Shown here: positions 5,878 to 61,909 of the stretch, in pieces | Layout of the letters: each line of letters begins with the position of its first letter | Position numbering within the stretch: position 1 is the first letter of the stretch | Source of the DNA: a virus | Lineage: Duplodnaviria; Caudoviricetes | Length of the DNA: 64,000 bases | IMG/VR virus record: IMGVR_UViG_2974611114_000001 | Span: 40,330-104,329 of that record | Strand: one strand, 5' to 3' | The notes under the pieces: model-generated | What the model was told of the DNA's origin: nothing | What the model saw: the letters and a program-made list of their open reading frames with translations, nothing else | Database searches by the model: none | Program-made: the position numbers and the translations under genes

Positions 5878-8647
5878 CTCCAAGCTCCAAATCAGCAATA
5901 CCCTCATAGTACTTCTGCTTCTCTTCGATAGTCATAAATGCTACAGGTAACTGGATACCTTCTATTCTGCAGTACGTTCTGTACCAGTCTACAATATTAG
6001 TAGTATCCATATCTTTACCGATACCCATCATTGTTAAGTACATTCTAGCATATTTAGGAGATGCACTATTACCAGTTCTAATAAAGAATTCCCTTTTATG
6101 GGATTTCATAGCCTCTACGAATGGGACTATTGTCTTTTCAGAACACCTAGTAATTGGCTCCCAGAAAATGTCTTGAACCTTATGGAAGAACCCAGCTCGT
6201 TCGTGTGGCTTTTCAGTAACGTATTGTTCTACTAATTCTCTGGTTAGCTCATTGATGTTGTCCAACTTATAGTACTGTAATAGTAACATCTTTTCAGAAT
6301 ACGCATCATTATGTCGTAATGGTGTGTAATCAGGAGTAGAAGACATAATAGCATCCACACGTTGATTAAAGTACTCAGTACTAGCGCTCTCTATACCTCC
6401 CCAGCTTTCCGTAAATATATCAATAGTTGCACCTTGATCTAATAAATAGAATCTTAACGTTGATTGATAGTTTTTACTCTCTATCTCCCTACGTCTGGCG
6501 TATAGCTGTTGACTTCTATCAATCCATCCCTCATCAGCATTATATTGCTCAGAACCTGCAACAAATCCAGCAACACCAGGATTAGTATACATATAGATTG
6601 ACATTGCACCACGATCTCGCCTGATAGCTTGCATTCTCATGTTTGGTGAGTGATTGGCTGTATTAGTTATTACAAATACGTTATCAAAGTAATTAAAGTC
6701 AACACCACTAGTTACCGATGGACTACATAATAGGGCATCAATCCCCTGATCAATTAACTCTTGGTTAGTTAAATCTAGGATTCTTCTAATATCGGGATCC
6801 TCTGTAGATGAGGAGTGGACTTCTTTAACATTCGCCCCTGTTGCCGCTCGTAGGGCTATGCCCTTTTCGGCTAACTGGGCGGGACCGGAGTCTGATACTA
6901 ATATTGACTTCTCACCCATCTCTAGAGATGTTTGCAGAGCTGTCCATATAGACTTTTCGTCAGGAAACTCATATACTTGAGCACCCTCCAGCATTCTTCT
7001 ATGGTGATTGTAATAATAAATAGGTTTGGCGAAGCCAATTAGAGCACCATAAGCCTCAATCGTTTCTGCACTAATATCACCATCCGATAGAACAACATAG
7101 TCTGCTGCCAGTAGTAGTTCTCGTAACGTTTCGATGCATGCCCTACGTTGCTTTACGACCGGCGCAAATAATAGGTCATTCATAACAGCGTCTGCTTCAT
7201 CAATAAACACGAAGTTAACTCTATCGGTGAATGTTGCGAACTTATGTATGGAATGAATAGTAGTTGACATTCTATCAATACCACCACGTTTAAAGTTTAG
7301 CATGTCTGCCGTCTTACAATATTGACCTGCACCGAATTTAGCTGCGTTAGATGCTACCAGTGAACGGGTGTTCGTTACTGCTAGGAACCCCCCTTTAACT
7401 AACCCCTTATTAAGCCAATTAATAATTGCAGTTGTCTTACCAGTACCTAAAGATGCTTTAACGAATGTCATACTATTAGGTGGCGGGATTTCCCGAAGTT
7501 TTAAGTACTTTTCCGCCTCGTTGCTATCAGTTTTCAGGGCGTACAAAGGCACTCCCTTTAGATTACCTTCAGGGATTTTTCTAGCTGAATTGTTAACGAA
7601 TGCTTTTAATGCTTGACGTCTACCATTATTAAAGTAATCTTGAACAGAACGTCTGTTATCTTTAGTACTTACATACTCCTCAAGATATGGACGAATTTCT
7701 CTCTCTAGCCAAGCTAGATCAACGCCCTCTTCTAATGCTCTATGGTAGAGTTTAGGAATAATACGAAGATATACACCATCTTCTGCTTCTTCAAGCTCTC
7801 TGATAGTATCCTCTATTTTTTCTGATGTAGATTTTTTTCCTTTAATAGAATCTAATAATGACAAAAATTCCTCTTTAAATTCACCACGAGTTGACTCATA
7901 GTCTGGTGCATTATGTGGAAGATTAATCTTCGAACCCTCAACACGCACCAATCTTGGAATTCTACGTTCTAGGAAAGGATCTACCATGCCATCCTCAAAG
8001 ATAGGATCAGCGAAGTAATGTGGTTGTACTGCTGAATAGTACGCTAAGTCAATAAGGTCGGAACCATACTTTTGGCGTGACGATTCGTTGACAGTCGAAA
8101 ATATAAACTTCAACTGCCCTTGTGTAACTGGAATATTGCTTTCTAGAATTAAGTGAATACGAATCCCTGGCTTTATGCCAGCAGAAGATGATGCATGAAC
8201 AATAAAGCCTGCATCCAATGGAAACATATCCTCACTTATATTATTAAGCATCTTTATAGCAAACTTTGCTTGACCTACCAAATCGAAATGATCAATATCT
8301 TCAGGCAAGGGGAAGTCGTCCACGTCAATAGCTACTACATGGCTTCGCTCTGTTAAATCAAAGTTTACTCTACGTCTATAAATAGCATTCTTAGAACCAG
8401 TACATTTACCGCGAACGGCTAATAGGTACGGATTCCTAGTGAGGGTGTGTAAAAGATCCTCCATCTCGACTAAGTCTTCTGGATATACCTCATCAACAAC
8501 ATTATACTGAATAGCCATAGATGCTGGCTTGCCTTCTGGATGTTCTTTATTGAATCGTTTACAGAATACTAAATCTGTATCCTTTTCATACTCACCAGTG
8601 GCTTTATTCAGACGATAGCCCTCATGTCCCTTTAAAATAGTGAACAT
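5870..8647 (-). CDS. obp: replication origin-binding protein / SF2 helicase with N-terminal primase-polymerase-like region
   Basis: 925 aa; ASLGTGKT Walker A, FIDEAD Walker B, SPSVTSGVDF, QAIRRDR; N-terminal IDVD...IHLIL; T5 synteny. Confidence 0.9.
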   Translation of the reverse strand: MFTILKGHEGYRLNKATGEYEKDTDLVFCKRFNKEHPEGKPASMAIQYNVVDEVYPEDLVEMEDLLHTLTRNPYLLAVRGKCTGSKNAIYRRRVNFDLTERSHVVAIDVDDFPLPEDIDHFDLVGQAKFAIKMLNNISEDMFPLDAGFIVHASSSAGIKPGIRIHLILESNIPVTQGQLKFIFSTVNESSRQKYGSDLIDLAYYSAVQPHYFADPIFEDGMVDPFLERRIPRLVRVEGSKINLPHNAPDYESTRGEFKEEFLSLLDSIKGKKSTSEKIEDTIRELEEAEDGVYLRIIPKLYHRALEEGVDLAWLEREIRPYLEEYVSTKDNRRSVQDYFNNGRRQALKAFVNNSARKIPEGNLKGVPLYALKTDSNEAEKYLKLREIPPPNSMTFVKASLGTGKTTAIINWLNKGLVKGGFLAVTNTRSLVASNAAKFGAGQYCKTADMLNFKRGGIDRMSTTIHSIHKFATFTDRVNFVFIDEADAVMNDLLFAPVVKQRRACIETLRELLLAADYVVLSDGDISAETIEAYGALIGFAKPIYYYNHHRRMLEGAQVYEFPDEKSIWTALQTSLEMGEKSILVSDSGPAQLAEKGIALRAATGANVKEVHSSSTEDPDIRRILDLTNQELIDQGIDALLCSPSVTSGVDFNYFDNVFVITNTANHSPNMRMQAIRRDRGAMSIYMYTNPGVAGFVAGSEQYNADEGWIDRSQQLYARRREIESKNYQSTLRFYLLDQGATIDIFTESWGGIESASTEYFNQRVDAIMSSTPDYTPLRHNDAYSEKMLLLQYYKLDNINELTRELVEQYVTEKPHERAGFFHKVQDIFWEPITRCSEKTIVPFVEAMKSHKREFFIRTGNSASPKYARMYLTMMGIGKDMDTTNIVDWYRTYCRIEGIQLPVAFMTIEEKQKYYEGIADLELGDG

Positions 8648-8721: not shown

Positions 8722-9410
8722 TTCACGGCTAAGGCTTCCGGTGGCACAAGTGCTCGGGTTCCCCTTATCTTACTCCTGCAACTTCTAGTTAATAATAAAC
8801 AGATTCCATAACTACCTCTTACGCCATTGTGCTAGGGAGAGTGTTCCACGTAAGCCCCATCGTTGCATCGATTCTTTAAGTTTCATTATGTTCACTGCTA
8901 GTACAGACGTTTTCTCAAAATAGAGAATTACTCCGAAGCTATAAACTTATATCACCATTCATTGTATTACTTCAAAACCATAATGCGGCAAGGTTACGAA
9001 TGCTAACAGCCAGTTGAATCATAATAACCGCCCCACGATATCAGATAACCCGCTAAGGCATACGTGGCTCGGGACCCCTTTCCTCCGAGGAGGCATTAAG
9101 CGCCGTAGTTACTAAGTTCAATATCCGACTTTTTTCAGGCTCGAGGCAGTAGGGCATACATCTCTGATTAAGGCATCGAATGCCATATGTACCGCACGCG
9201 GGATCACACCGCACCTACTCTGTTAGCTTTGAATTGTCATAATACGAATAATGTTACAGGTTCATAGTCATCGGAGACAAAAGTCTCCGACTAAGGCAGA
9301 AATCTACCTCAATATAATAAGAGACCCAACGAACCGTACTCTATCGAGTATCTCTAAGGGCACTCTAGGAATACCCTTAGAGATCGGGGATCCCTCCCCT
9401 CACTCGATAT
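8722..9410 (-). ncRNA. candidate ~690-nt structured non-coding RNA (or origin/primer RNA region)
   Basis: No ORF of 60 aa or more; own minus-strand promoter (TTGACA 9443-9438, TATAAT 9420-9415); many hairpins. Confidence 0.55.
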
Positions 9411-9467
9411 AAATATTATATCAAATATTTAAAAATTTGTCAAGAATACTTTATAAAATCGCATCGA

Positions 9468-10106
9468 CTAACGGCGTACAACACGTAATGTACCGATTAG
9501 ACCATTATCAATAGCAAACCCAAGAATCTCATCCAACGTCGAATCTTTAAGCTCAACATGGAATGCACTAGAATTTGCGCTACTGATGCAAATACCTACC
9601 ATTTCTTTATAGAGATCAGAATCCTCCCCGTAAGTCTCCGATACATAATCAAGGGCATTCAAAAGCACTTCATTTTTAAAACGTCGCATTGCTGGGCAAT
9701 CTTCATTAGTAAGACCCGCTAATAGGTTACGACCAACAATGTTTAAGAGATTTTCATCTCCTAGCACTTCGCTAGTGTCGCATTCAACAATGTTACGTAA
9801 GGAAAAGTCAATAGATGCCTCATCGTATGCAAGTATATGACCAGTACATGCAAAAATTAACGAGTTGATAACCCTAAACCCTGGAGTTAATATCATCTCT
9901 ACCAGCATATTTGCTAGAATACCGTCCGCCACAAACATACTTTCTGTTAAAGTCTTAGATACTCTAGGGGTAAATAGCATTGGGTATTCTTTATGGATGC
10001 ATTTGAGCACGTAAAGCAGATCTACTTTACCAATCCCTGCATCAATCCAGTTGCCATCAGCAACATAACCCATCTGTACACTATCAATAATCTTTACTAA
10101 GTACAT
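9468..10106 (-). CDS. hypothetical protein
   Basis: 212-aa ORF with GAGG RBS and own promoter. Confidence 0.75.
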   Translation of the reverse strand: MYLVKIIDSVQMGYVADGNWIDAGIGKVDLLYVLKCIHKEYPMLFTPRVSKTLTESMFVADGILANMLVEMILTPGFRVINSLIFACTGHILAYDEASIDFSLRNIVECDTSEVLGDENLLNIVGRNLLAGLTNEDCPAMRRFKNEVLLNALDYVSETYGEDSDLYKEMVGICISSANSSAFHVELKDSTLDEILGFAIDNGLIGTLRVVRR

Positions 10107-10177: not shown

Positions 10178-12043
10178 TTACTGGATCTTACCGCTACGCA
10201 CATCTGCATGCTTAACCCTACCCATAACCTCATGTTGCTTACCTGGGTTAAATGGTCTAGCACCTGGGTTACCTAAGTATCCACATACCCTTCGTGTAAT
10301 TTCAAGAGTGTTAGTATCGTGGTTACCACAAGCTGGGCATTCAAACCCATTCTCACTGGCTATGGCTTCGCCAATAAAACCACATTCACTACAGGTGTCA
10401 ACAGGAGTATTAATACCAAAGTAATGAACCTTACTAGCAGCATAGTCAATTACCCACTCTAAAGCATCTAAGAATCGCTTCATATCTGGTAACTCTACAT
10501 AAGCAATGCAACCACCACTAGCAATAGAAGTAAAGTTAGATTCATAATCAAATTTGACATCAGGAGCCACCTTTCTAGCAACATCTAAATGATGCGAGTT
10601 AGTATAGTAACCTTTCTCGAATAGCCAAGAATACTCAGGAAATTTATTAGCATCCAACTGGTTGAAACGATTACATAATGACTCACTAGGAGTTGCATAC
10701 AAACTGAAGCCAATACCTGTATTAGCCTTTTCAATATCACACGCCTCACGTATGTATAAAAGAACTTGCTTAACGAATTCGATACATTCAGAGCTCATAG
10801 TATCTACATTTTTACCGAACATTGCTTGCAACATCTCATGGCAACCAATATAACCTACGGAAATGGATGCACGATCCTTAAAATGGTCAAATACTAAGTC
10901 CTTTGCATTCAGTCGCATACCAAAAGCCCCTGACATGTATAAGATAGGAGCAGCTTCTGCTCTTACTTTCTTAAGGTGATCCATTCTCCAATAGCATGCA
11001 TTAATAGCCAGTTCTACCCGCTCTTCTAAAATGTCGAAGAAAGTATCAACATCTCCTTCTGACTCAATAGCGATTCTAGGTAGGTTTATGCTAACAACAC
11101 CTAAATTATTACGACCTGCTGTCTCACCATCTTTATTGGCAGCTAAGAAACTTCTACAACCCATACTTACTTTATAGTCACCAGTAACTTCAACAACCTT
11201 ATCATATGATATGTAGTCAGGATACATGCGTTCACTAGTACATTTAATAGCTAGCTTCTTAATATCGTAGTTAGGGTCACCGGGTTTCATATTAAGTCCA
11301 GGTTTAAGTACATATACTAATTTGGGAAATATAGCAGTATGTTTACCATTCCCTAATCCAGCCATTCTAGTATTTAGGATAGCTTTCTGTATCATTCTAG
11401 CTTCCCAAGAAGTACCTAACCCAAATCCTAGAGTAACAAAAGGGCTTTGACCATTTGAGTTAAAGAGTGTATTGATCTCATACTCCAAACTCTGCATAGC
11501 ATCTTTAACTTCCTTCTCTACCATCTCAGTTGCCATTACAGCAGATTTAGCAACATCCCCTTTCAACCACTTCATTGCAAATGATAGCGCCTTATTATAT
11601 GACGCCCTGACATACGGAGCATATATTTCATCAATTCTATCAATAGATGTTCCTCCATATTGGTGACTTGACACCTGAGCTAAAATCTGTGCGGTCACAG
11701 CCACAGCTGTATCTAGAGACTTAGGAGTTGTAATATCAGCATTCCCTACTCGCATACCATCCCTTAGCATCCCTTCTAAATCTACCAAACAGCAATTAGT
11801 GTAGCCCATAGCAGAGTAGTCAGCGTCATGGAAGTGGATGTCTCCAGAGTTATGTGCTTCTAGGATATCTTCAGGTAGCATTTCTTCTAGTAATGCCTTA
11901 CATACTTCACCCGCCAACATATCACGTTGAGTGGCTAGTCGTTCAGAAGGCTTATTAGCATTATTAAACCGTAAATCATCTTCCGCTGTGTTAGAGATTA
12001 TATCTCTAGAGTTGTTCATCATACTTTTTAATTTTTCAGTCAT
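10178..12043 (-). CDS. nrdD: anaerobic (class III) ribonucleoside-triphosphate reductase
   Basis: HFHDAD, TNCC, QSPF, MGCRSFL, YYTNS, CSECG/CPACG, RRVCGYLG glycyl-radical motif; no ATP cone; start MTEKL behind GGAGG. Confidence 0.96.
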   Translation of the reverse strand: MTEKLKSMMNNSRDIISNTAEDDLRFNNANKPSERLATQRDMLAGEVCKALLEEMLPEDILEAHNSGDIHFHDADYSAMGYTNCCLVDLEGMLRDGMRVGNADITTPKSLDTAVAVTAQILAQVSSHQYGGTSIDRIDEIYAPYVRASYNKALSFAMKWLKGDVAKSAVMATEMVEKEVKDAMQSLEYEINTLFNSNGQSPFVTLGFGLGTSWEARMIQKAILNTRMAGLGNGKHTAIFPKLVYVLKPGLNMKPGDPNYDIKKLAIKCTSERMYPDYISYDKVVEVTGDYKVSMGCRSFLAANKDGETAGRNNLGVVSINLPRIAIESEGDVDTFFDILEERVELAINACYWRMDHLKKVRAEAAPILYMSGAFGMRLNAKDLVFDHFKDRASISVGYIGCHEMLQAMFGKNVDTMSSECIEFVKQVLLYIREACDIEKANTGIGFSLYATPSESLCNRFNQLDANKFPEYSWLFEKGYYTNSHHLDVARKVAPDVKFDYESNFTSIASGGCIAYVELPDMKRFLDALEWVIDYAASKVHYFGINTPVDTCSECGFIGEAIASENGFECPACGNHDTNTLEITRRVCGYLGNPGARPFNPGKQHEVMGRVKHADVRSGKIQ

Positions 12044-13337: not shown

Positions 13338-16300
13338 ATGGACTTGACAAGATTTTTGAAGCCTGAACAGCCTCAGACACAACTATATAATATTAAAAAC
13401 GTAAGAAAGCGTGATGGCTCTATTGAAGAATTTGATGAGAGAAAATTACTAGGGTGGGCGTCCTGGGCGTGTAAGGGGAAAGAAGATCTTTATTCCAGAT
13501 TAGTGAAAATGGTACTAAGAACGGAAGCTCGTGAGTACATCTATACCGATGAACTACAGGATATGTTAATTAGCGCAGCGGACAGCTTAATTGTATCAGA
13601 GCCTGAGTACGATGATGTTGCTAAACAATTGCTACTAGCTAAGATGCGTAAACAGGTATTTCAGTCAGATAGATTCCAGCCCCCAGGACTTCGCCAGTGG
13701 GCTGACTACTTGGCAGAAGCAGGTGCATGGCAGAAGATCACATGGTTTACGGACAGCGAGTGGGATCAATTAGAAGAAGCAATTGATCATTCTAGGGATG
13801 AAGATTTTACCTATGGAGGGTTAAAACAGTTCTTCGATAAGTATGCACGACGCAATGTAGAGCTAGAAGAAATATACGAAACTCCTCAGTTTATGTATAT
13901 GGGCATGGCAATGGCAATGGGTCAAACAGATGATTGGTCTATTCAGCAAATTATTGACTTATACGATGCATTTAGCACCTTTAAGATTAACGTGCCAACA
14001 CCACCTATGATTGGTCTACGCTCAGGTGACAATGGATTTGCATCTTGCTGTCTAGTAGAATCTGGAGATACATTAGATTCCCTAGATGCATCAGAGCATG
14101 TTGTGTTTAAGATGGTTGCAGCTAGAGCAGGTATTGGGCATAAGCTAACAACTAGATCTGTAGCAGACCCTGTTCGTAACGGATCGTTTTATCATATGGG
14201 TAAGATACCTTACCTACGCCATGCATTTGCTAGCTGTGCAAGTAATACACAACAATCACGTGGCGGTTCAATGAATACTAATATCGCTATGTTTGATCCT
14301 GAAGTAATGACTATCCTGTCAGGTAAGTCACAGCGTTCAGACGCAGAGAGTCGTTTAGATAAAATTGATTATACATTACAGGTTAACGGATTCTTATTAG
14401 AAAGAGCTTTAAAGAAGCAAGACATTACATTAATGTCTTACCTATACGCCCCAGAAGTGTACGAGGCATTCTATAGTAAGGATCTAAGTACGTTTGTAAA
14501 GGCATATGAAGCAGCAGAAAAGCGTCTATCTACTAAGACCAGAAGAACACGAGATGGACACTCAGTTCCTTTATGTCCTACTATTAGTGCTATGGAAGTA
14601 TTAAATCATGCATTAAAAATTCGTATGGAAGTAGGTAGGGTTTATTTACAGTTTGTAGATAATACAAATGCTCATTCTAACTTTGACGAACCTATCACCA
14701 TGACTAATCTATGTGTTGCACCAGAAACACGCATACTAACTAGTATTGGATACCAAACTATTAAGGATGTGCAGGATTCTGAAGTAACACTGTGGAACGG
14801 TCAAGAGTGGTCAAATACTGTAGTACGTAAGACAGGTGAAAATCAGCCACTACTAAATATAGAGTTTTCGGATGGTAGTAGTATTAGAGCAACCCCATAT
14901 CACAAATTCTATACCCCAACAGCGGGACGACGCGCGGATAGGGTGAAGTCTGTAAAGGATAAGTTAATAGAGGTTAGAGCTAAAGACTTAACTATAGGTA
15001 TGAAAATGCCTAAGTTTGACCTACCAGTAATTACCGGCAGTAAAGAACTTACCAGTCCTTGGGCTAATGGATTCTTCACAGGGGATGGTACTGTACAGCA
15101 GAATGGATCAGGAAAGCAGTACCATAAACTTTATTTCTATGAAGATAAGCGGGATCTGGTAGACAAGTGTGATGCAGAGCTTAGCGCCGGACACCACGCA
15201 GATAATATGTCAGCTTATATGGTTAAGGGGTTAGAAAGTAAATTTTTCGTACCATCTGCTGAGTACACTATTCAATCTAGAATTAAGTGGTTAGAGGGCT
15301 TACTTGATGCTGACGGGTGCTTGCAATCCAATGGTCCTACCCCCTCAGTAGTACTAAGCTCAGTAAATAAGCAATTTTTAGAGCAGGTAAGGGAGACGTT
15401 AGCCTCTTTAGGAGTATCCTCTAAGTTCTCCACCACTCGAAGCGCAGGACCACGTATGTTGCCAGACGGTAGAGGTGGGCACAAAGAATACCATACACAG
15501 GAAGTTCACAGGATTACTATATCATCCACTGGGTACTGGCAGTTATATGATCAGGGGTTGAGATTACACAAACATAGTGATACACTAGGCAGACCAAATA
15601 GACCAGCATCGCAGTATGTAACCGTTACGAGTATAGAAGATGGTGGGGTAGCAGATACATTTTGCTTCACTGAACCCTTACTAAACTTGGGAGTATTCAA
15701 TGGTATACTGGCAGGAAACTGTGTTGAAATCAATCAGCCTACTTACTGGTTCGATCATATCATAGACCTGTATAACACTAATGAGGATATTAAACCTGGA
15801 GAACAGGGTGAGGTTTCTCTGTGTAACTTAGCAGGTATCACATTAGGTAAAGTCAAAACTCTAGAAGAGTGGGAATCGGTTTGTTACTTAGTGCTTAAGT
15901 TTGTGGACACTATCATTGATATTCAAGACTACGCGTTCCCTCAAATGGCTATAACCGCCAAGAAGCGTAGAAACGTGGGTATTGGTGTTATGAACGCAGC
16001 AGGTGCTATGGCAGAGCTAGGACTTCAATATGTAGGTGAGGAAGCAAGAAATTGGCTACATAAAGAAATGGAGAAGCATGCCTACTTCCTGCATAAAGCA
16101 TCTGTTAGGTTGGCAAAAGAACGAGGTGCAGCAGATTGGTTCAAATATACTTTACCTGCTAAGGGTGTTTTAGTAATAGATACCTATAAGAAAACTGTAG
16201 ACGAATTAGTATCAGTAGGCTTAGAACTAGACTGGGAGTCGCTGAGAGCAGACATTATAAAATATGGTATGCGTAATAGCGTACTATCTGCTCAGATGCC

Positions 16301-22030: not shown

Positions 22031-22321
22031 ATGGAAGATTTAACCAAACAAGAAATCGAACAGGCAATGTCGGATATGTCAGTAGAGGAGCGAGCACACT
22101 TTGAACAGCACCTACAAAACTTAAAGGCATTAAAGCGCCGTACAGAACGAGCTATGCTGGGTAGTAAGCACCCAAAACAGCGCAGAACTGTAACTATCAC
22201 TCAAGTTAGTGATCGTTTTTCTGGGTTAACTAAAATTTATAAATTCTTAGCTCGTGCAGTTCCGTCAATTGATACAAGCAATACTACTATGTTGCGAGTT
22301 GCAGAGTCCTACGGACTATAA
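22031..22321 (+). CDS. hypothetical protein
   Basis: 96-aa ORF with promoter and GAGG RBS. Confidence 0.7.
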   Translation: MEDLTKQEIEQAMSDMSVEERAHFEQHLQNLKALKRRTERAMLGSKHPKQRRTVTITQVSDRFSGLTKIYKFLARAVPSIDTSNTTMLRVAESYGL

Positions 22322-49337: not shown

Positions 49338-50321
49338 ATGAGAGTACCATTAAACATTTTTCTACAAAGAGAGAATGTATTAGGCAATGAGCACCTATTC
49401 CAAAAGGCATGGAATGAATTTAAAATGCTAGATGGAATGAAAGTTTCAGAAATGAATGACAGACAGAAAGCTCTAGTACTTATATTTACTAAACGTACTA
49501 TTGATGAAGGGGGAGTGATTAAACGAGCTGTACACCAGATAGCTATACATACTTTAGCATACTTAAAGGTTACAGATTCAGTAGGTATAACAGCTAAGAT
49601 ATACAAGGTAAACATTATAGAAGATATCGAATGTAAGTTAGAACAGACAATATTCCCAAAAAGTGAAGCACCATTCATCTGCTCTATATTAAATTTAGAT
49701 AAGGGGTTTGTGCCGCTAGAGTACCATAATGGAAAGAAACAATATCGCATATACTATCATAAGAAGCAGTTTATGGTATCTGTTAGAGATCCTGATGATA
49801 CTAAATTACCATATGCCTCTGTTGATTACCCTAATGATAACTATGCAGAGGTATATAAACAAGTAATTCTTAAAGCCAAAAAACTACCAGTATCTACTTC
49901 AGATACTACCTGTACACAACCAGTGTGGGCAGCTATCTACGCTCTAGCAGATAGGGTAGGTGATCATCTAATAGCTAAGCCTAATAGTGGAGTAGAGTTT
50001 AATATACCAATAGATTCTATCCTACCCCTTAATAAGAAGTACTCAGAAGTACCACTAGAAGGGTCTATAGGTTTTGAAAGTGTAGTAACCACCTACCACA
50101 TTGCCGAAGCAATTTCGCAATGGGCATTCAGAATAGCAACAAACCAAGCTACAGATAATGACTTAGATGCACAATCTGTACAGTGTCCAGTATTCAAAGC
50201 CACATGCAAAAAGGTATACCTAGACGTACCAAAAATAGAAACTAGAGAATGTACTAACTCTCGCAGTTTTCCTTCGCATTCACTGTCACTCATCATGGAC
50301 GAGTACTTAAACATTAACTAA
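49338..50321 (+). CDS. hypothetical protein
   Basis: 327-aa ORF with AGGAG RBS, last early gene before the non-coding region. Confidence 0.75.
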   Translation: MRVPLNIFLQRENVLGNEHLFQKAWNEFKMLDGMKVSEMNDRQKALVLIFTKRTIDEGGVIKRAVHQIAIHTLAYLKVTDSVGITAKIYKVNIIEDIECKLEQTIFPKSEAPFICSILNLDKGFVPLEYHNGKKQYRIYYHKKQFMVSVRDPDDTKLPYASVDYPNDNYAEVYKQVILKAKKLPVSTSDTTCTQPVWAAIYALADRVGDHLIAKPNSGVEFNIPIDSILPLNKKYSEVPLEGSIGFESVVTTYHIAEAISQWAFRIATNQATDNDLDAQSVQCPVFKATCKKVYLDVPKIETRECTNSRSFPSHSLSLIMDEYLNIN

Positions 50322-50418
50322 TTACATACCCTAGAAAATAAAATCTTGTTGACAAATATTTTAGAGCATGTTATAATTAAACCATGATTTGAGAAATTTC
50401 AAAGAATGTAGTTTAATT

Positions 50419-50519
50419 GGAGAGGGTGTAAGTACGCTGTACGAACACCAGAGGCGACGGAGGTTTAAGGAGGAGGAGCCAGATGGTGCTTCGTGCAAGG
50501 CGTATTCCACACCCTCTCC
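50419..50519 (+). ncRNA. ~100-nt rod-like hairpin with GGA-rich loop
   Basis: GGAGAGGGTGT/ACACCCTCTCC, TACGC/GCGTA, CACCA/TGGTG; promoter TTGACA 50349, TATAAT 50372. Confidence 0.5.
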
Positions 50520-52119
50520 TCCATGTGTATAAGATATAAATGGTTTTTAAGTATTTTAAGTTAATATAACAAACAATAACGCATGGTGGGGGAAGTTGTA
50601 ACTATTAAAAGAGTACAAAGAAAATCTTTAATGAAAAGAACGAGGTAGGAGGGTTATTTAATAGTAAAGATTTATTAATGAAAAGATTTGGTAACATAGT
50701 TTTATTCGCCAGAACTGCCTCCCCATTTTTCCGCTAGACAACTCCCCAATCCATTTCTAGCGATAATGAAATACGTTATTCAGCCTCTAGAATAGTGGAT
50801 AAAAAGATACTTTTCTCCCTATTCCCACCCCTTAATGCCTTCTAGTAATATTAGTAGGCATCTCACCTTATTATTACCAGCTAACCTATTAATCCCCATT
50901 ACCCGCCAATCTATTATCAGACAATCTATTAATCCCCATTAGCAGCCAATCGTCACAGTTTTGCTTAAAGCACATTTGTGACAAACCCAGTGTGAAGACC
51001 CGAATTAGACACCAATCCCAAAAATATTATCATATAGTAATTTCTTCCTAGCTATGAACTAAATGAGTAGCTCTATGATTTTATAGTCCATAATTTCTCT
51101 CTAGCTATAAACTAAATGCCCACATCAGTAGCTATATGATTTTATAATTATAATCATGAGACCATAAGAAAATTGTCTCTATTTTGCCGGTGGCACGTTT
51201 GAGACGGGCTGCCACCCCCGTAAATTTTTGTCAAGCCTTTCCCTAGTGTTTTGCAAATAATTTTTTAGGCACAGGGCGGTTATAGATCAGGGGGGTTTCG
51301 CTCTAAGAGCGAGTTCCTACAAAACAGCCCCACCCCCTCCTTAAATAGCAGTAAATCCTTCCACAGTAGCCCACAATTCCCACTAAAAATGTCAAAGATT
51401 GCAAAAGTCTGTAAAATTCTCCCAGAATCCCCACAATGCCTGCAAATAAAATCCTACAGATGCAATAGCTTGCAAATCTCTGCAAATCCTATCCAAAGTC
51501 GCTCTCATACAACTCCCAATCTATTTCTAGCATTAAAATCCCCCAATTATACTTATTATAGCTAAATAAACCTTACCAGCTAAAATCCCCCATTCCGCTT
51601 CGCGAATACTCAGCTAAACAGTTCTAGCTAACAATTACTAGTTTAACCCTCCTATAATACAGCCACGCATAAATTCTACAACATAAAATTTAACTTAGGC
51701 AATCACATTCCCAAAACTAATTTTGTATATAAAGATTCTTGGTAATACCCCACTTAGTTAGTTATACGCCAGCTAGACAGATCAGCTGGTGGCTTTGAGA
51801 ATCTTCCCCCTGTTGTCGCGAGTTTTGCTTTGAAGCAAGTTTCGCGAATTTGGGGTGAGGAAGAAAAAATTTCTCACAAAAATAAAAACACGTTTCGGAT
51901 TTCCCAGAATAAAAAGTCCACACGTAATATTTTTGAAAAAACGAAGTCGATTACGCACATAGGCGCAGGGAAGAGGTGTTACTGAGAAGCATTCTCACCT
52001 GCGAGGGGTTATCATTACTCTAGCTGAATGCGTCTAATTCGTATATGCGAGTGGTTATCATTACTCTAGCTGAATGCGTATTATTTGCGCTTGATAGTGA
52101 GAAACACTATCAATTAGAC

Positions 52120-52191
52120 TTATCCACAGTTATATAATTAACTATATAACGCTGAAACGATTCAGTTTGAGTTATCAACAAGTTATCCACA
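52120..52191 (+). promoter_or_regulatory. three DnaA boxes
   Basis: TTATCCACA 52120-52128, TTATCAACA 52172-52180, TTATCCACA 52183-52191. Confidence 0.75.
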
Positions 52192-52202
52192 GGTTATAAC
52201 TA

Positions 52203-52218
52203 CTGTATATAATTACAG
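52203..52218. promoter_or_regulatory. LexA (SOS) box
   Basis: CTG-TATATAATTA-CAG. Confidence 0.65.
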
Positions 52219-52445
52219 GGTCACTATATAGGGTAATATTTTGGTATAGGGATATTTGCGCGTATACGGCATTTTGAGGGGTTTTAAGGGTGGGAGTGAT
52301 ACTAAAGTATGGGGTAGAGTGGTGGGGCAAATAAAAAATAACGCCCCGTTATAGTCATGAGGCGTTATTATCAGTCAACGCAAGGGATTTTACATATTAT
52401 CGTAAAATATTTTTAGTGCCTTTCTATACAGCCCAATCAGGGGTA

Positions 52446-52811
52446 TTATGCACAATAAGCCCCACAAGCCGTATCAGATTTAACAGTAGGCTTGTGTAGT
52501 GTTACGTTGATAAACACACGCGCCACCTTGAAGCTATCCCCAATAGGTAACACCTTAACAGCATACTGATATTCAGTGCAACCGACTGTATAGACAAAGC
52601 TGTCTATTAATCCTTCATTAGCTTCTAGAGCGGTGCTGATAGCTGTTATCATGCGTAGTGGTGCATGGTTAGGTTTAACTTCAGCGCAATCTAAAAGCCC
52701 ATCTAGTAAAGATATTGCTCTAGCTGGATTGTTAACAAAAACGTCCGCACTAGCTGAAATCTCTACTAGGCTATTGTTTACGATCAGTTGAATCGATTGA
52801 TAGTGTCTCAT
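52446..52811 (-). CDS. pre-early hypothetical protein
   Basis: 121-aa ORF, ATGA overlap. Confidence 0.6.
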   Translation of the reverse strand: MRHYQSIQLIVNNSLVEISASADVFVNNPARAISLLDGLLDCAEVKPNHAPLRMITAISTALEANEGLIDSFVYTVGCTEYQYAVKVLPIGDSFKVARVFINVTLHKPTVKSDTACGAYCA

Positions 52812-56111: not shown

Positions 56112-56387
56112 GAGTGATCACCTTATTAAATTGTTAAAGAGCGTATCGAGTTATTGCCTTTCGATGTGATTAACTATACCCCCTTTAGATTTTAGCGCAA
56201 GTGTTTAATTGTAAAGAAGTGTAAATACGCAAGCGCTTATAAATGAATATAGAGCGCACGCGCGTAGCATAAAGTCAATAACTTTGTTTAGCAAAAAGTG
56301 CTAAATCGAGATCTTTTTGTTTTGATACTAACGTATAGCTTCTAGATAAAATCGCCTAGAGTCGATTCTAGGACGTTCTAGGGCATA

Positions 56388-56403
56388 CTGTTTATTTATA
56401 CAG
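56388..56403. promoter_or_regulatory. LexA (SOS) box
   Basis: TACTG-TTTATTTATA-CAGTA between the divergent pre-early promoters. Confidence 0.65.
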
Positions 56404-56778
56404 TAGGTTGACAAATTAATATAAACATGTTACGCACACGCGCGGTCTTTATATCCACCAGCTTAAACCGTCTTTACATTTCTTTACAAATAAACACTTG
56501 CACTAATTATCTATTAGAGTATATTTATAAGCGTACCAAGTAACAACGCTCTTTAAAAATCTAACATTCTGGTTTACTGGTTATCGGTAGGCTTCTTACT
56601 AGCGAGTACGAGCGCGGAGTTTAGGCGAAAGCCTTTAGTAAGAAAACTTTTAGGATTCTCGAAAATAACCGCTTGACAATATAATTAGAATGTGGATAAT
56701 AGAAAGCGTACCAAGTAACAACGCTCTTTAACAATCTGGCTTATTATAGGTGACTCACTACTAACGAGGTGAATTACT

Positions 56779-61696: not shown

Positions 61697-61909
61697 CTAA
61701 ACAATACGCAGTAGCTATAATAACACTGGACGATTGAAAGGTTGAGTTATAGTTACATTAAGAAACAATAACGTTAGGTGATAGCTACTCAATGCGACTG
61801 TTGCGAGTAGCTATCATAAATAATAGTGATAGTAACGCAACGTTATAGTTACGCACAGGGGCGGTAACGAGACTAAACTATCACCCCCTGTTATTGGGAC
61901 ACACCCTCA

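Follow-up and report, generated by a model that had tools for sequence, protein, structure and literature searches.

The Novosibvirus form of T5 Repeat Region 3, a putative injection stop signal with conserved DnaA boxes and an SOS-box-like palindrome

The DNA analyzed here, a window of 64,000 nucleotides (bases 40330–104329 of the 104,329-base virus record IMGVR_UViG_2974611114_000001), belongs to a T5-like Proteus phage of the genus Novosibvirus (Demerecviridae) that is close to phages Stubb and RP7. A gene-free gap of 2.1 kb (50321–52446) separates convergent genes in this window, with early genes on the plus strand on one side and the pre-early operon on the minus strand on the other. The gap contains an array of palindromes and short repeats which, judged by its sequence, represents in Novosibvirus what Repeat Region 3, the putative injection stop signal (iss), is in T5. 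The region is single-copy in the record and 86–90% identical to RP7, Stubb, PL1, Proteus phage 1 and 2, M4H10_20 and VTCCBPA139. Genes adjoining the element of Stubb are annotated as homologs of T5 A1 and A2, and the A1 of the window is 99% identical to that of Stubb, the only phage returned by a search with the A1 protein alone. A preliminary description of the locus had read the array as a promoter-less set of host regulator operators (Fur, DnaA, Cra, LexA) at the injection-stop position, lying between convergent genes with nothing obvious to regulate. The gene-free gap and an iss copy without a gene downstream agree with the latter observation, and the T5 homology together with an adjacent nick motif confirms the proposed position.

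Direct comparison showed that 52096–52218 aligns arm for arm with the IRC (inverted repeat C)–spacer–IRD element of T5 (AY587007, 6022–6152) and also, as reverse complement, with IRD'–spacer–IRC' (9332–9462), and both arms are homologous in sequence to T5 IRC' and IRD'. Common to T5 and the window are the end AGTGAGAAACACT, the TTATCCACA box, a pair of DnaA-type boxes, a GGTTAT linker and a terminal CTGT-N8-ACAG palindrome, which is labeled “palindrome D” in GenBank AY587007. BLAST searches detected this module of ~130 bp in non-coding DNA of 313 phage (Demerecviridae) records, with Salmonella, Klebsiella, Escherichia, Proteus, Vibrio and others as hosts. The best match is the central T5-type copy on the same strand, which corresponds to the iss copy in inverted form; as the window runs opposite to the T5 map direction, its element is therefore homologous to the iss copy in both position and orientation. 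In Vibrio phage X1 the same module is found in the same gap with the same gene layout.

The position and the order of the parts point in the same direction. The module is located 9.7–9.9 kb from the point matching the left terminus of Stubb, which is the T5-type position of the gap (~9–10 kb), and the distance from the nick motif to that point is 9,938 bp compared to 9,668 bp for the T5 equivalent. Nick, repeat units, arm C', spacer and arm D' follow each other in the T5 order reversed, and the repeat units and the major nick site that adjoin the T5 element are all present (a 7-1-7 palindrome, 46-bp repeats, a DRD-like unit and GCGCAGGG). Thus, the window resembles T5 in the placement of the element at the inner end of the first-transferred DNA, in its orientation, in part order and in the adjacent nick motif, and the arm ends, DnaA boxes, GGTTAT linker and palindrome D are homologous. 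The two differ in that the element spans 131 bp in T5 and 123 bp in the window, that the window lacks a full second inverted copy, that its spacer has palindromes of its own, and that, of an array which in T5 comprises about five Fur-like repeat units, it has only one diverged palindrome plus a 46-bp repeat. On these grounds we regard the array as very probably an iss homolog.

Within the genus, Stubb and the window are 85–88% identical across the whole region and nearly identical in the module at 52096–52218. Stubb differs in having one 46-bp unit instead of two, in carrying TTACCCACA in place of the second TTATCCACA as well as a perfect TGAGAATCATTCTCA palindrome, and in four additional genes between the module and the conserved operon. 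The arrangement of the array and the pairing of its DnaA boxes have been reported before, for Stubb as well: Davison (2020; bioRxiv 10.1101/866236), citing Heusterspreute 1987 and Wang 2005 for the T5 region, described Repeat Region 3, the 131-bp element, eight DnaA or DnaA-like boxes paired 3 bp apart (two pairs per element) and “always” a 52-bp spacer between the arms, and assigned Stubb to a “Type 4” carrying only the iss copy. In that study membrane-bound DnaA is proposed to halt the DNA while A1 and A2 act on adjoining DNA, and there is no mention of LexA, Fur or Cra.

Table 1. Coordinates of the array, its parts and related sites in the window
Feature	Position	Strand	Basis or remark
Whole IRC'–spacer–IRD' homolog	52096–52218	+	Direct comparison with T5 6022–6152 and 9332–9462; BLAST
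DRD-like unit AAGTCGATTACGCACATAG	51944–51962	+	Abuts the nick motif, also in T5 and Sugarland; unchanged among six Novosibvirus genomes
GCGCAGGG, T5 major-nick motif, homolog of the T5 7.9% nick	51963–51970	+	Match to the T5 nick motif
7-1-7 palindrome TGAGAAGCATTCTCA	51983–51997		Single diverged copy of the family-wide ...CATTCTCA units
Two tandem 46-bp units, each with GGTTATCATTACTCTAGCTGAATGCGT	51991–52082	+	51991–52036 and 52037–52082
“Fur box” of the preliminary description, GATAGTGAGAAACACTATC	52093–52111		T5 inverted repeat C' has the core AGTGAGAAACACT (52096–52108) as its outer end
Consensus DnaA box TTATCCACA, arm C'	52120–52128	+	Position homologous to T5 box; partner box lost in the window
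Palindrome GTTATATA-N6-TATATAAC (8-6-8)	52129–52150		Lineage-specific part of the spacer
Cra/FruR-like palindrome GCTGAAACGATTCAGT	52151–52166		Lineage-specific part of the spacer; 14/16 of ideal palindrome
DnaA box pair TTATCAACA-AG-TTATCCACA, arm D'	52172–52191	+	TTATCAACA at 52172, TTATCCACA at 52183
SOS-box-like palindrome TACTGTATATAATTACAGGG (T5 “palindrome D”)	52201–52220		16/20 to LexA consensus; perfect CTGT-N8-ACAG core
Second SOS-box-like palindrome TACTGTTTATTTATACAGTA	56386–56405		18/20; divergent pre-early promoter region; remnant of T5 IRD copy
Consensus DnaA box	56691–56699	−	Overlaps −10 of the strongest pre-early promoter-like site (TTGACA-16-GATAAT)

All strings listed in the preliminary description are indeed present in the window: TGAGAAGCATTCTCA at 51983, GGTTATCATTACTC at 52007 and 52053, GATAGTGAGAAACACTATC at 52093, TTATCCACA at 52120 and 52183, TTATCAACA at 52172, the 8-6-8 palindrome at 52129–52150, GCTGAAACGATTCAG at 52151 and CTGTATATAATTACAG at 52203. 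How far the corresponding binding-site assignments hold was analyzed by comparing motif counts in the whole 104-kb genome with 100 Markov simulations, and by examining the homologous loci. The latter were gathered with the DNA anchor AGTGAGAAACACTNT, which gave 114 matches, mostly by chance, including ~35 T5-like loci; the comparison within Novosibvirus covers six Proteus phage genomes.

The DnaA boxes are real, conserved and previously known. The perfect box TTATCCACA occurs three times in the genome compared to 1.24 expected, and all three copies are in non-coding first-step-transfer (FST) DNA. Two of them stand 63 bp apart in the module and form with TTATCAACA a cluster of conserved TTWTNCACA boxes homologous to those of T5. 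T5 has four DnaA-type boxes in two pairs with 3-bp gaps, whereas the window has three, i.e., one pair with a 2-bp gap and a single consensus box. In T5 and Vibrio X1 the paired boxes are separated by 3 bp; an extra linker base offsets the shorter gap of the window and keeps the first box at an unchanged 31 bp from CTGT. The first and last boxes are separated by 63 bp in the window, as in Vibrio X1, but by 73 bp in T5 and SP15, a difference of one helical turn; therefore, the rule of a 52-bp spacer in all phages fails family-wide. The consensus R-type TTATCCACA boxes in close pairs resemble the DnaA clusters of oriC and datA. In contrast to these, the phage site is carried by DNA that arrives ahead of all replication genes, and a role as origin is considered unlikely. 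A candidate IHF site in the box pair, TATCAACAAGTTA, fits WATCAANNNNTTR only via the 2-bp gap and is absent in T5, and was treated as a chance match. Upstream of the A2/A1 cluster, the −10 hexamer of a promoter-like site at 56673–56700 (11/12) is overlapped by the third perfect DnaA box of the genome. Host DnaA would probably bind the array.

The assignment of a LexA box also holds at the level of sequence. Genome-wide, two SOS-type 20-mers with at least 16/20 matches were found compared to 0.36 expected, both in non-coding FST DNA, and one with at least 18/20 compared to 0.00 expected. CTGT-N8-ACAG is present twice in the window, both times with an all-A/T center, and once more in the remaining genome with a mixed center. 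Among 29 complete elements from Tequintavirus, Sugarlandvirus, Novosibvirus and Pogseptimavirus, collected with an anchor that excludes the palindrome itself, 28 carry CTGT-N8-ACAG and the single exception has CCAG. Ten distinct 20-mers were found, in which positions 2–7, 9 and 16–18 are invariant and positions 10–11 are free to vary. The common iss forms of Tequintavirus match the SOS consensus at 19/20 positions, and TACTGTATATAATTACAGGG is invariant in the six Proteus phages. At the place of the second box, Stubb and RP7 carry TACTGTATAAATATACAGTG, with the arms kept and three center positions different from the window.

Like an E. coli-type SOS box (CTG-N10-CAG; ideal TACTG(TA)5CAGTA), the palindromes of the window have a perfect CTGT-N8-ACAG and an all-A/T center, and fixed arms with a free center are the pattern that a LexA dimer would impose. 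They differ from an SOS box in that the iss copy controls no gene and that, in this phage family, the palindrome is always at a fixed distance from the DnaA box pair. The “LexA box” is a family-wide conserved palindrome that resembles a real SOS operator. A sequence of such quality should bind LexA, and for the array itself we consider LexA binding slightly more probable than its absence. In the stretch 56386–56414, the second box is immediately adjacent to a TTGACA hexamer and shares bases with a weak promoter-like site on the minus strand (TAAACA-18-TAGAAT), and could therefore regulate a pre-early promoter. No paper linking T5 with LexA, an SOS box or a Fur box was found in a literature search that was mostly without subscription journals, including the original sequence papers of 1987 and 2005.

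On the left side of the module, GCGCAGGG at 51963 is the sole copy in the genome, and T5 has the same sequence on the minus strand at nick 1 (9661–9668) and nick 2 (22250–22257). The equivalents of the nick and the unit that precedes it read ...GTCGGATTTGCACAAAA|GCGCAGGG in T5 and ...GTCGGATTCGCACATAA|GCGCAGG in Sugarland. The related sites GCGC[AG]GG(G) or GCGC.GGG number four to five in the genome (five for GCGC.GGG), all on the plus strand of the window and zero on the other; they are found at 15442, 36145, 44241 and 51963 of the window, with one more 3.3 kb before it. This one-strand bias fits single-strand nicks of the T5 type. Position 11415 of Stubb (NC_048086), deposited as the “terminal repeat end” determined by PhageTerm, maps to 51963 of the window, and the PhageTerm repeat ends of both Stubb and Sugarland (MG459987, 10138) are exactly 5′ of GCGCAGG(G). 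In T5, nick and terminal-repeat end are separated by 471 bp, and the deposited lengths may therefore end at the nick. Caution is thus warranted for these two T5-like terminal-repeat lengths, which may stop at the virion nick and not at the true repeat end. A search for DRD-type iterons left of the nick gave background counts only, and homology between T5 and the window in the DNA beyond the nick is limited to a shared motif of 15 nt (51271–51285). This motif, CAGGG(G)CGGT(TA), is found at 51272–51285 in the non-coding gap and again at 61856–61868 near the point matching the left terminus of Stubb (61900), as well as at T5 10342, Kenya-K36 8244 and Sugarland 10231 and 10941.

What had been described as a direct repeat of ~28 bp is a repeat, but its actual extent is a tandem duplication of 46 bp; the two units are 85% identical to each other and share a 27-bp identical core. 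One copy of this unit is present in Stubb, RP7 and VTCCBPA139, two in the window, and three in PL1 and Proteus phage 1. The ...CATTCTCA units (T5 direct repeat C, palindromes E to I) have relatives in T5, SP15, Sugarland, Vibrio phage X1 and Stubb, and the true homolog of these Fur-like T5 units in the window is the 51983 palindrome, which matches the Fur 19-mer (GATAATGATAATCATTATC) at 14/19 positions, i.e., at background level.

Indeed, the Fur sites proposed for the array do not stand out from the AT-rich background, an outcome that the preliminary description itself had named as refuting its proposal and that holds for this phage. The genome contains one 19-mer with 15/19 matches compared to 1.22 expected, namely the site at 52093, and 13 with at least 14/19 compared to 9.0 expected. 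The GGTTATCATTACTC “half-sites” at 52007 and 52053 are below 14/19, and the 7-1-7 Fur form at 13/14 or better has zero matches in the genome. Moreover, the 13-mer AGTGAGAAACACT within the 52093 site is present in both T5 copies and ~30 T5-like loci, whereas the flank to its left varies: the GAT from which the likeness to Fur derives is GGT or GCT in the closest relatives among the six Proteus phages, and T5 has GGAAGTG or TTAGTG. The homologous units of T5, SP15 and Vibrio X1 reach 13/14 of the 7-1-7 Fur form; the half-site common to all genera is ATTCTCA, while that of Fur is ATTATCA. Binding of Fur to the array is thus very unlikely. A perfect Fur-type 7-1-7 palindrome, TGATAATCATTATCA, was observed ~200 bp from the left genome end in SP15 (NC_048627, 233–247) and Sugarland (206–220), T5-like phages that belong to other genera.

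For Cra, the match as such is rare but its conservation is confined to the Proteus phages. GCTGAAACGATTCAGT fits the Cra consensus RSTGAAWCSNTHHW on both strands, and is the only palindrome with at least 14/16 matches in the genome (0.01 expected). It is invariant in the six Proteus phages but absent from the elements of T5, SP15, Sugarland and Vibrio X1, and the adjacent 8-6-8 palindrome, which the Proteus phages share with few changes, is likewise missing from the spacers of T5, Sugarland and Vibrio X1, where the spacer sequence is unrelated. In addition, the Cra-like half-site CTGAATCG is similar to a repeat motif of the phage itself, CTGAATGCG. Given ~200 known motifs of host regulators, a single good match has to be expected by chance, so that the Cra match is not compelling and binding of Cra appears improbable.

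The array was further characterized by its folding potential and its transcription signals. As single-stranded DNA its 266 bases are more stable than shuffled sequences (z = −3.47; 0 of 200 shuffles as stable), a consequence of six short palindromes in succession. An Rfam search of the array returned nothing real (a CrcZ match of 14 bits compared to a cut-off of 95). The description of the array as promoter-less is nearly right, the one exception being a weak promoter-like match (TCCACA-16-TATAAT, 52186–52213, 10/12) that overlaps the LexA-like box; a true promoter at this place was rejected and the match left as weak, since it has no counterpart in T5. A promoter that fits the sigma-70 consensus perfectly (TTGACA-17-TATAAT with TG, 50349–50377) adjoins the end of the last early gene and is directed into the gap, and a related sequence comes after the second SOS-like box, at 56407. 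On the minus strand, inspection by eye of 52325–52375 revealed a hairpin (AACGCC...GGCGTT) followed by a T-run just before the module, which likely terminates the pre-early operon. This agrees with T5, where terminators are followed by palindrome D.

Starting from the homology, the part order and the family-wide conservation of the DnaA boxes and CTGT-N8-ACAG, we propose the following model. The DNA would enter in the order SOS-grade palindrome D, DnaA pair, lineage-specific spacer, DnaA box, AGTGAGAAACACT arm end, two 46-bp units, 7-1-7 palindrome and virion nick GCGCAGGG. Upon arrival in the cytoplasm, host DnaA and a LexA dimer may occupy the conserved sites at their fixed mutual distance, and together they would form a protein–DNA complex by which the inner end of the DNA transferred first is marked or held until phage A1 and A2 act. 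The 1-bp loss between the DnaA boxes, compensated by a 1-bp gain before the palindrome, counts in favor of this model. As a whole, a Repeat Region 3 homolog with a predicted DnaA–LexA complex is our best explanation, with a probability of about 0.75, and it retains part of the landing pad for host proteins suggested in the preliminary description: the DnaA and LexA site matches stand, while Fur and Cra drop out. The notion of host DNA-binding proteins at work on the array is essentially the DnaA model of Davison with LexA added, and the anchoring, ratcheting or shielding from the A1 nuclease that had also been suggested would be hypothetical functions. Several points weigh against it. Two-step injection has been demonstrated for T5 and BF23 only, and according to a BF23 paper (2023) and a PNAS paper (2026) the role of the sites is untested and the stop of T5 at ~8% unsolved. 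The iss copy of the window is the weakest SOS match seen (16/20), Stubb has the degraded DnaA box TTACCCACA, and the 52-bp inter-arm spacer is not preserved, since the window element is 8 bp and its spacer ~10 bp shorter. High conservation extends over the whole arm beyond the LexA-like part, and the DNA-binding A2 could be its reader. Finally, proteins bound inside the cell should favor entry, which makes a plain roadblock a weak explanation and holding, marking or restart more plausible. That either DnaA or LexA is needed for the pause is unlikely.

Phage proteins such as A2, an A1–A2 pair or a virion protein might instead read the arms and palindromes to restart or cut the DNA, with the likeness to DnaA and LexA sites being incidental. 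A1, A2 and the element always co-occur in T5-like phages, Davison proposes an action of A1/A2 on the DNA beside the region, and some parts of the conserved arm, e.g., AGTGAGAAACACT and GGTTAT, correspond to no site of a host protein. However, a phage protein would have no need for a 19/20 SOS optimum plus the exact R-type DnaA box TTATCCACA, and sequences this good should bind the abundant host proteins anyway, so that we see this as possible but on balance not the likely explanation. A stop set in the virion or channel by the nick at 51963, by hairpin palindromes or by the repeats beyond would leave another task to the DnaA and LexA sites, e.g., control of the pre-early operon. Novosibvirus, T5 and Sugarland all have the nick motif next to the array, and self-complementarity of the region is unusually high. 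In both the window and T5, one pre-early operon is flanked by the two LexA-like boxes, the second of which sits with a DnaA box among pre-early promoter-like sites. Yet the iss copy is downstream of the operon terminator with no gene to control, and nick-less T5 mutants reportedly retain two-step transfer; we consider such a mechanism unlikely.

The remaining alternatives fare worse. Paired DnaA boxes as in oriC, repeats and AT-rich palindromes could indicate an origin of replication that depends on DnaA, or else a signal for packaging (terminal-repeat end), and the array is near the inner end of the terminal repeat and, in the right-hand copy, near the physical genome end. But the T5 origins were mapped near the genome center and the replication genes are still outside the cell at the first step (Davison 2020), and the distance from element to repeat end is not fixed (~680 bp in T5), which makes this highly improbable. 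We give even less credit to the original idea that Fur, Cra, DnaA and LexA land on the array and thereby sense the state of the host (iron, carbon, replication, DNA damage) ahead of second-step transfer. The rarity of the Cra-like palindrome and its invariance in the six Proteus phages speak for it, as do homologous Tequintavirus units much nearer to Fur boxes (e.g., TGAGAATCATTATCA, 13/14); against it stand the background-level Fur matches of the window phage with their non-conserved flank and the location of the Cra-like site in a spacer that is unrelated between genera. A T5-like phage carrying the element is recorded, among the BLAST matches, as grown on E. coli DH5a. This strain is recA1, so that its LexA is not cleavable. 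Its support of growth argues against a LexA-cleavage sensor; the reading of host state through LexA cleavage is thus unlikely, and such cleavage as trigger of second-step transfer was discarded. Titration of the regulators, which had also been suggested, is quantitatively implausible with the one or two copies of FST DNA present at the first-step stage, and was rejected for that reason. Overall, the preliminary observations were partly confirmed and their interpretation is partly supported.

The comparison across genera suggests which parts may matter for the injection stop. A genus distant from T5 has retained the DnaA boxes, the SOS-grade palindrome, the arm end and the nick motif but has lost the Fur-like array and the content of the spacer, which narrows the candidates for essential cis-elements to a few short sites. 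As the Fur-like T5 repeats have largely decayed in Novosibvirus while LexA and DnaA sites persist, the latter would be the core of a complex. That host LexA is a built-in part of a T5-type injection-stop complex, with the pause or the A1/A2-dependent restart depending on it, is a tentative proposal that we hold to be unlikely; if true, LexA would be a second host factor for the ~60-year-old puzzle of the injection stop.

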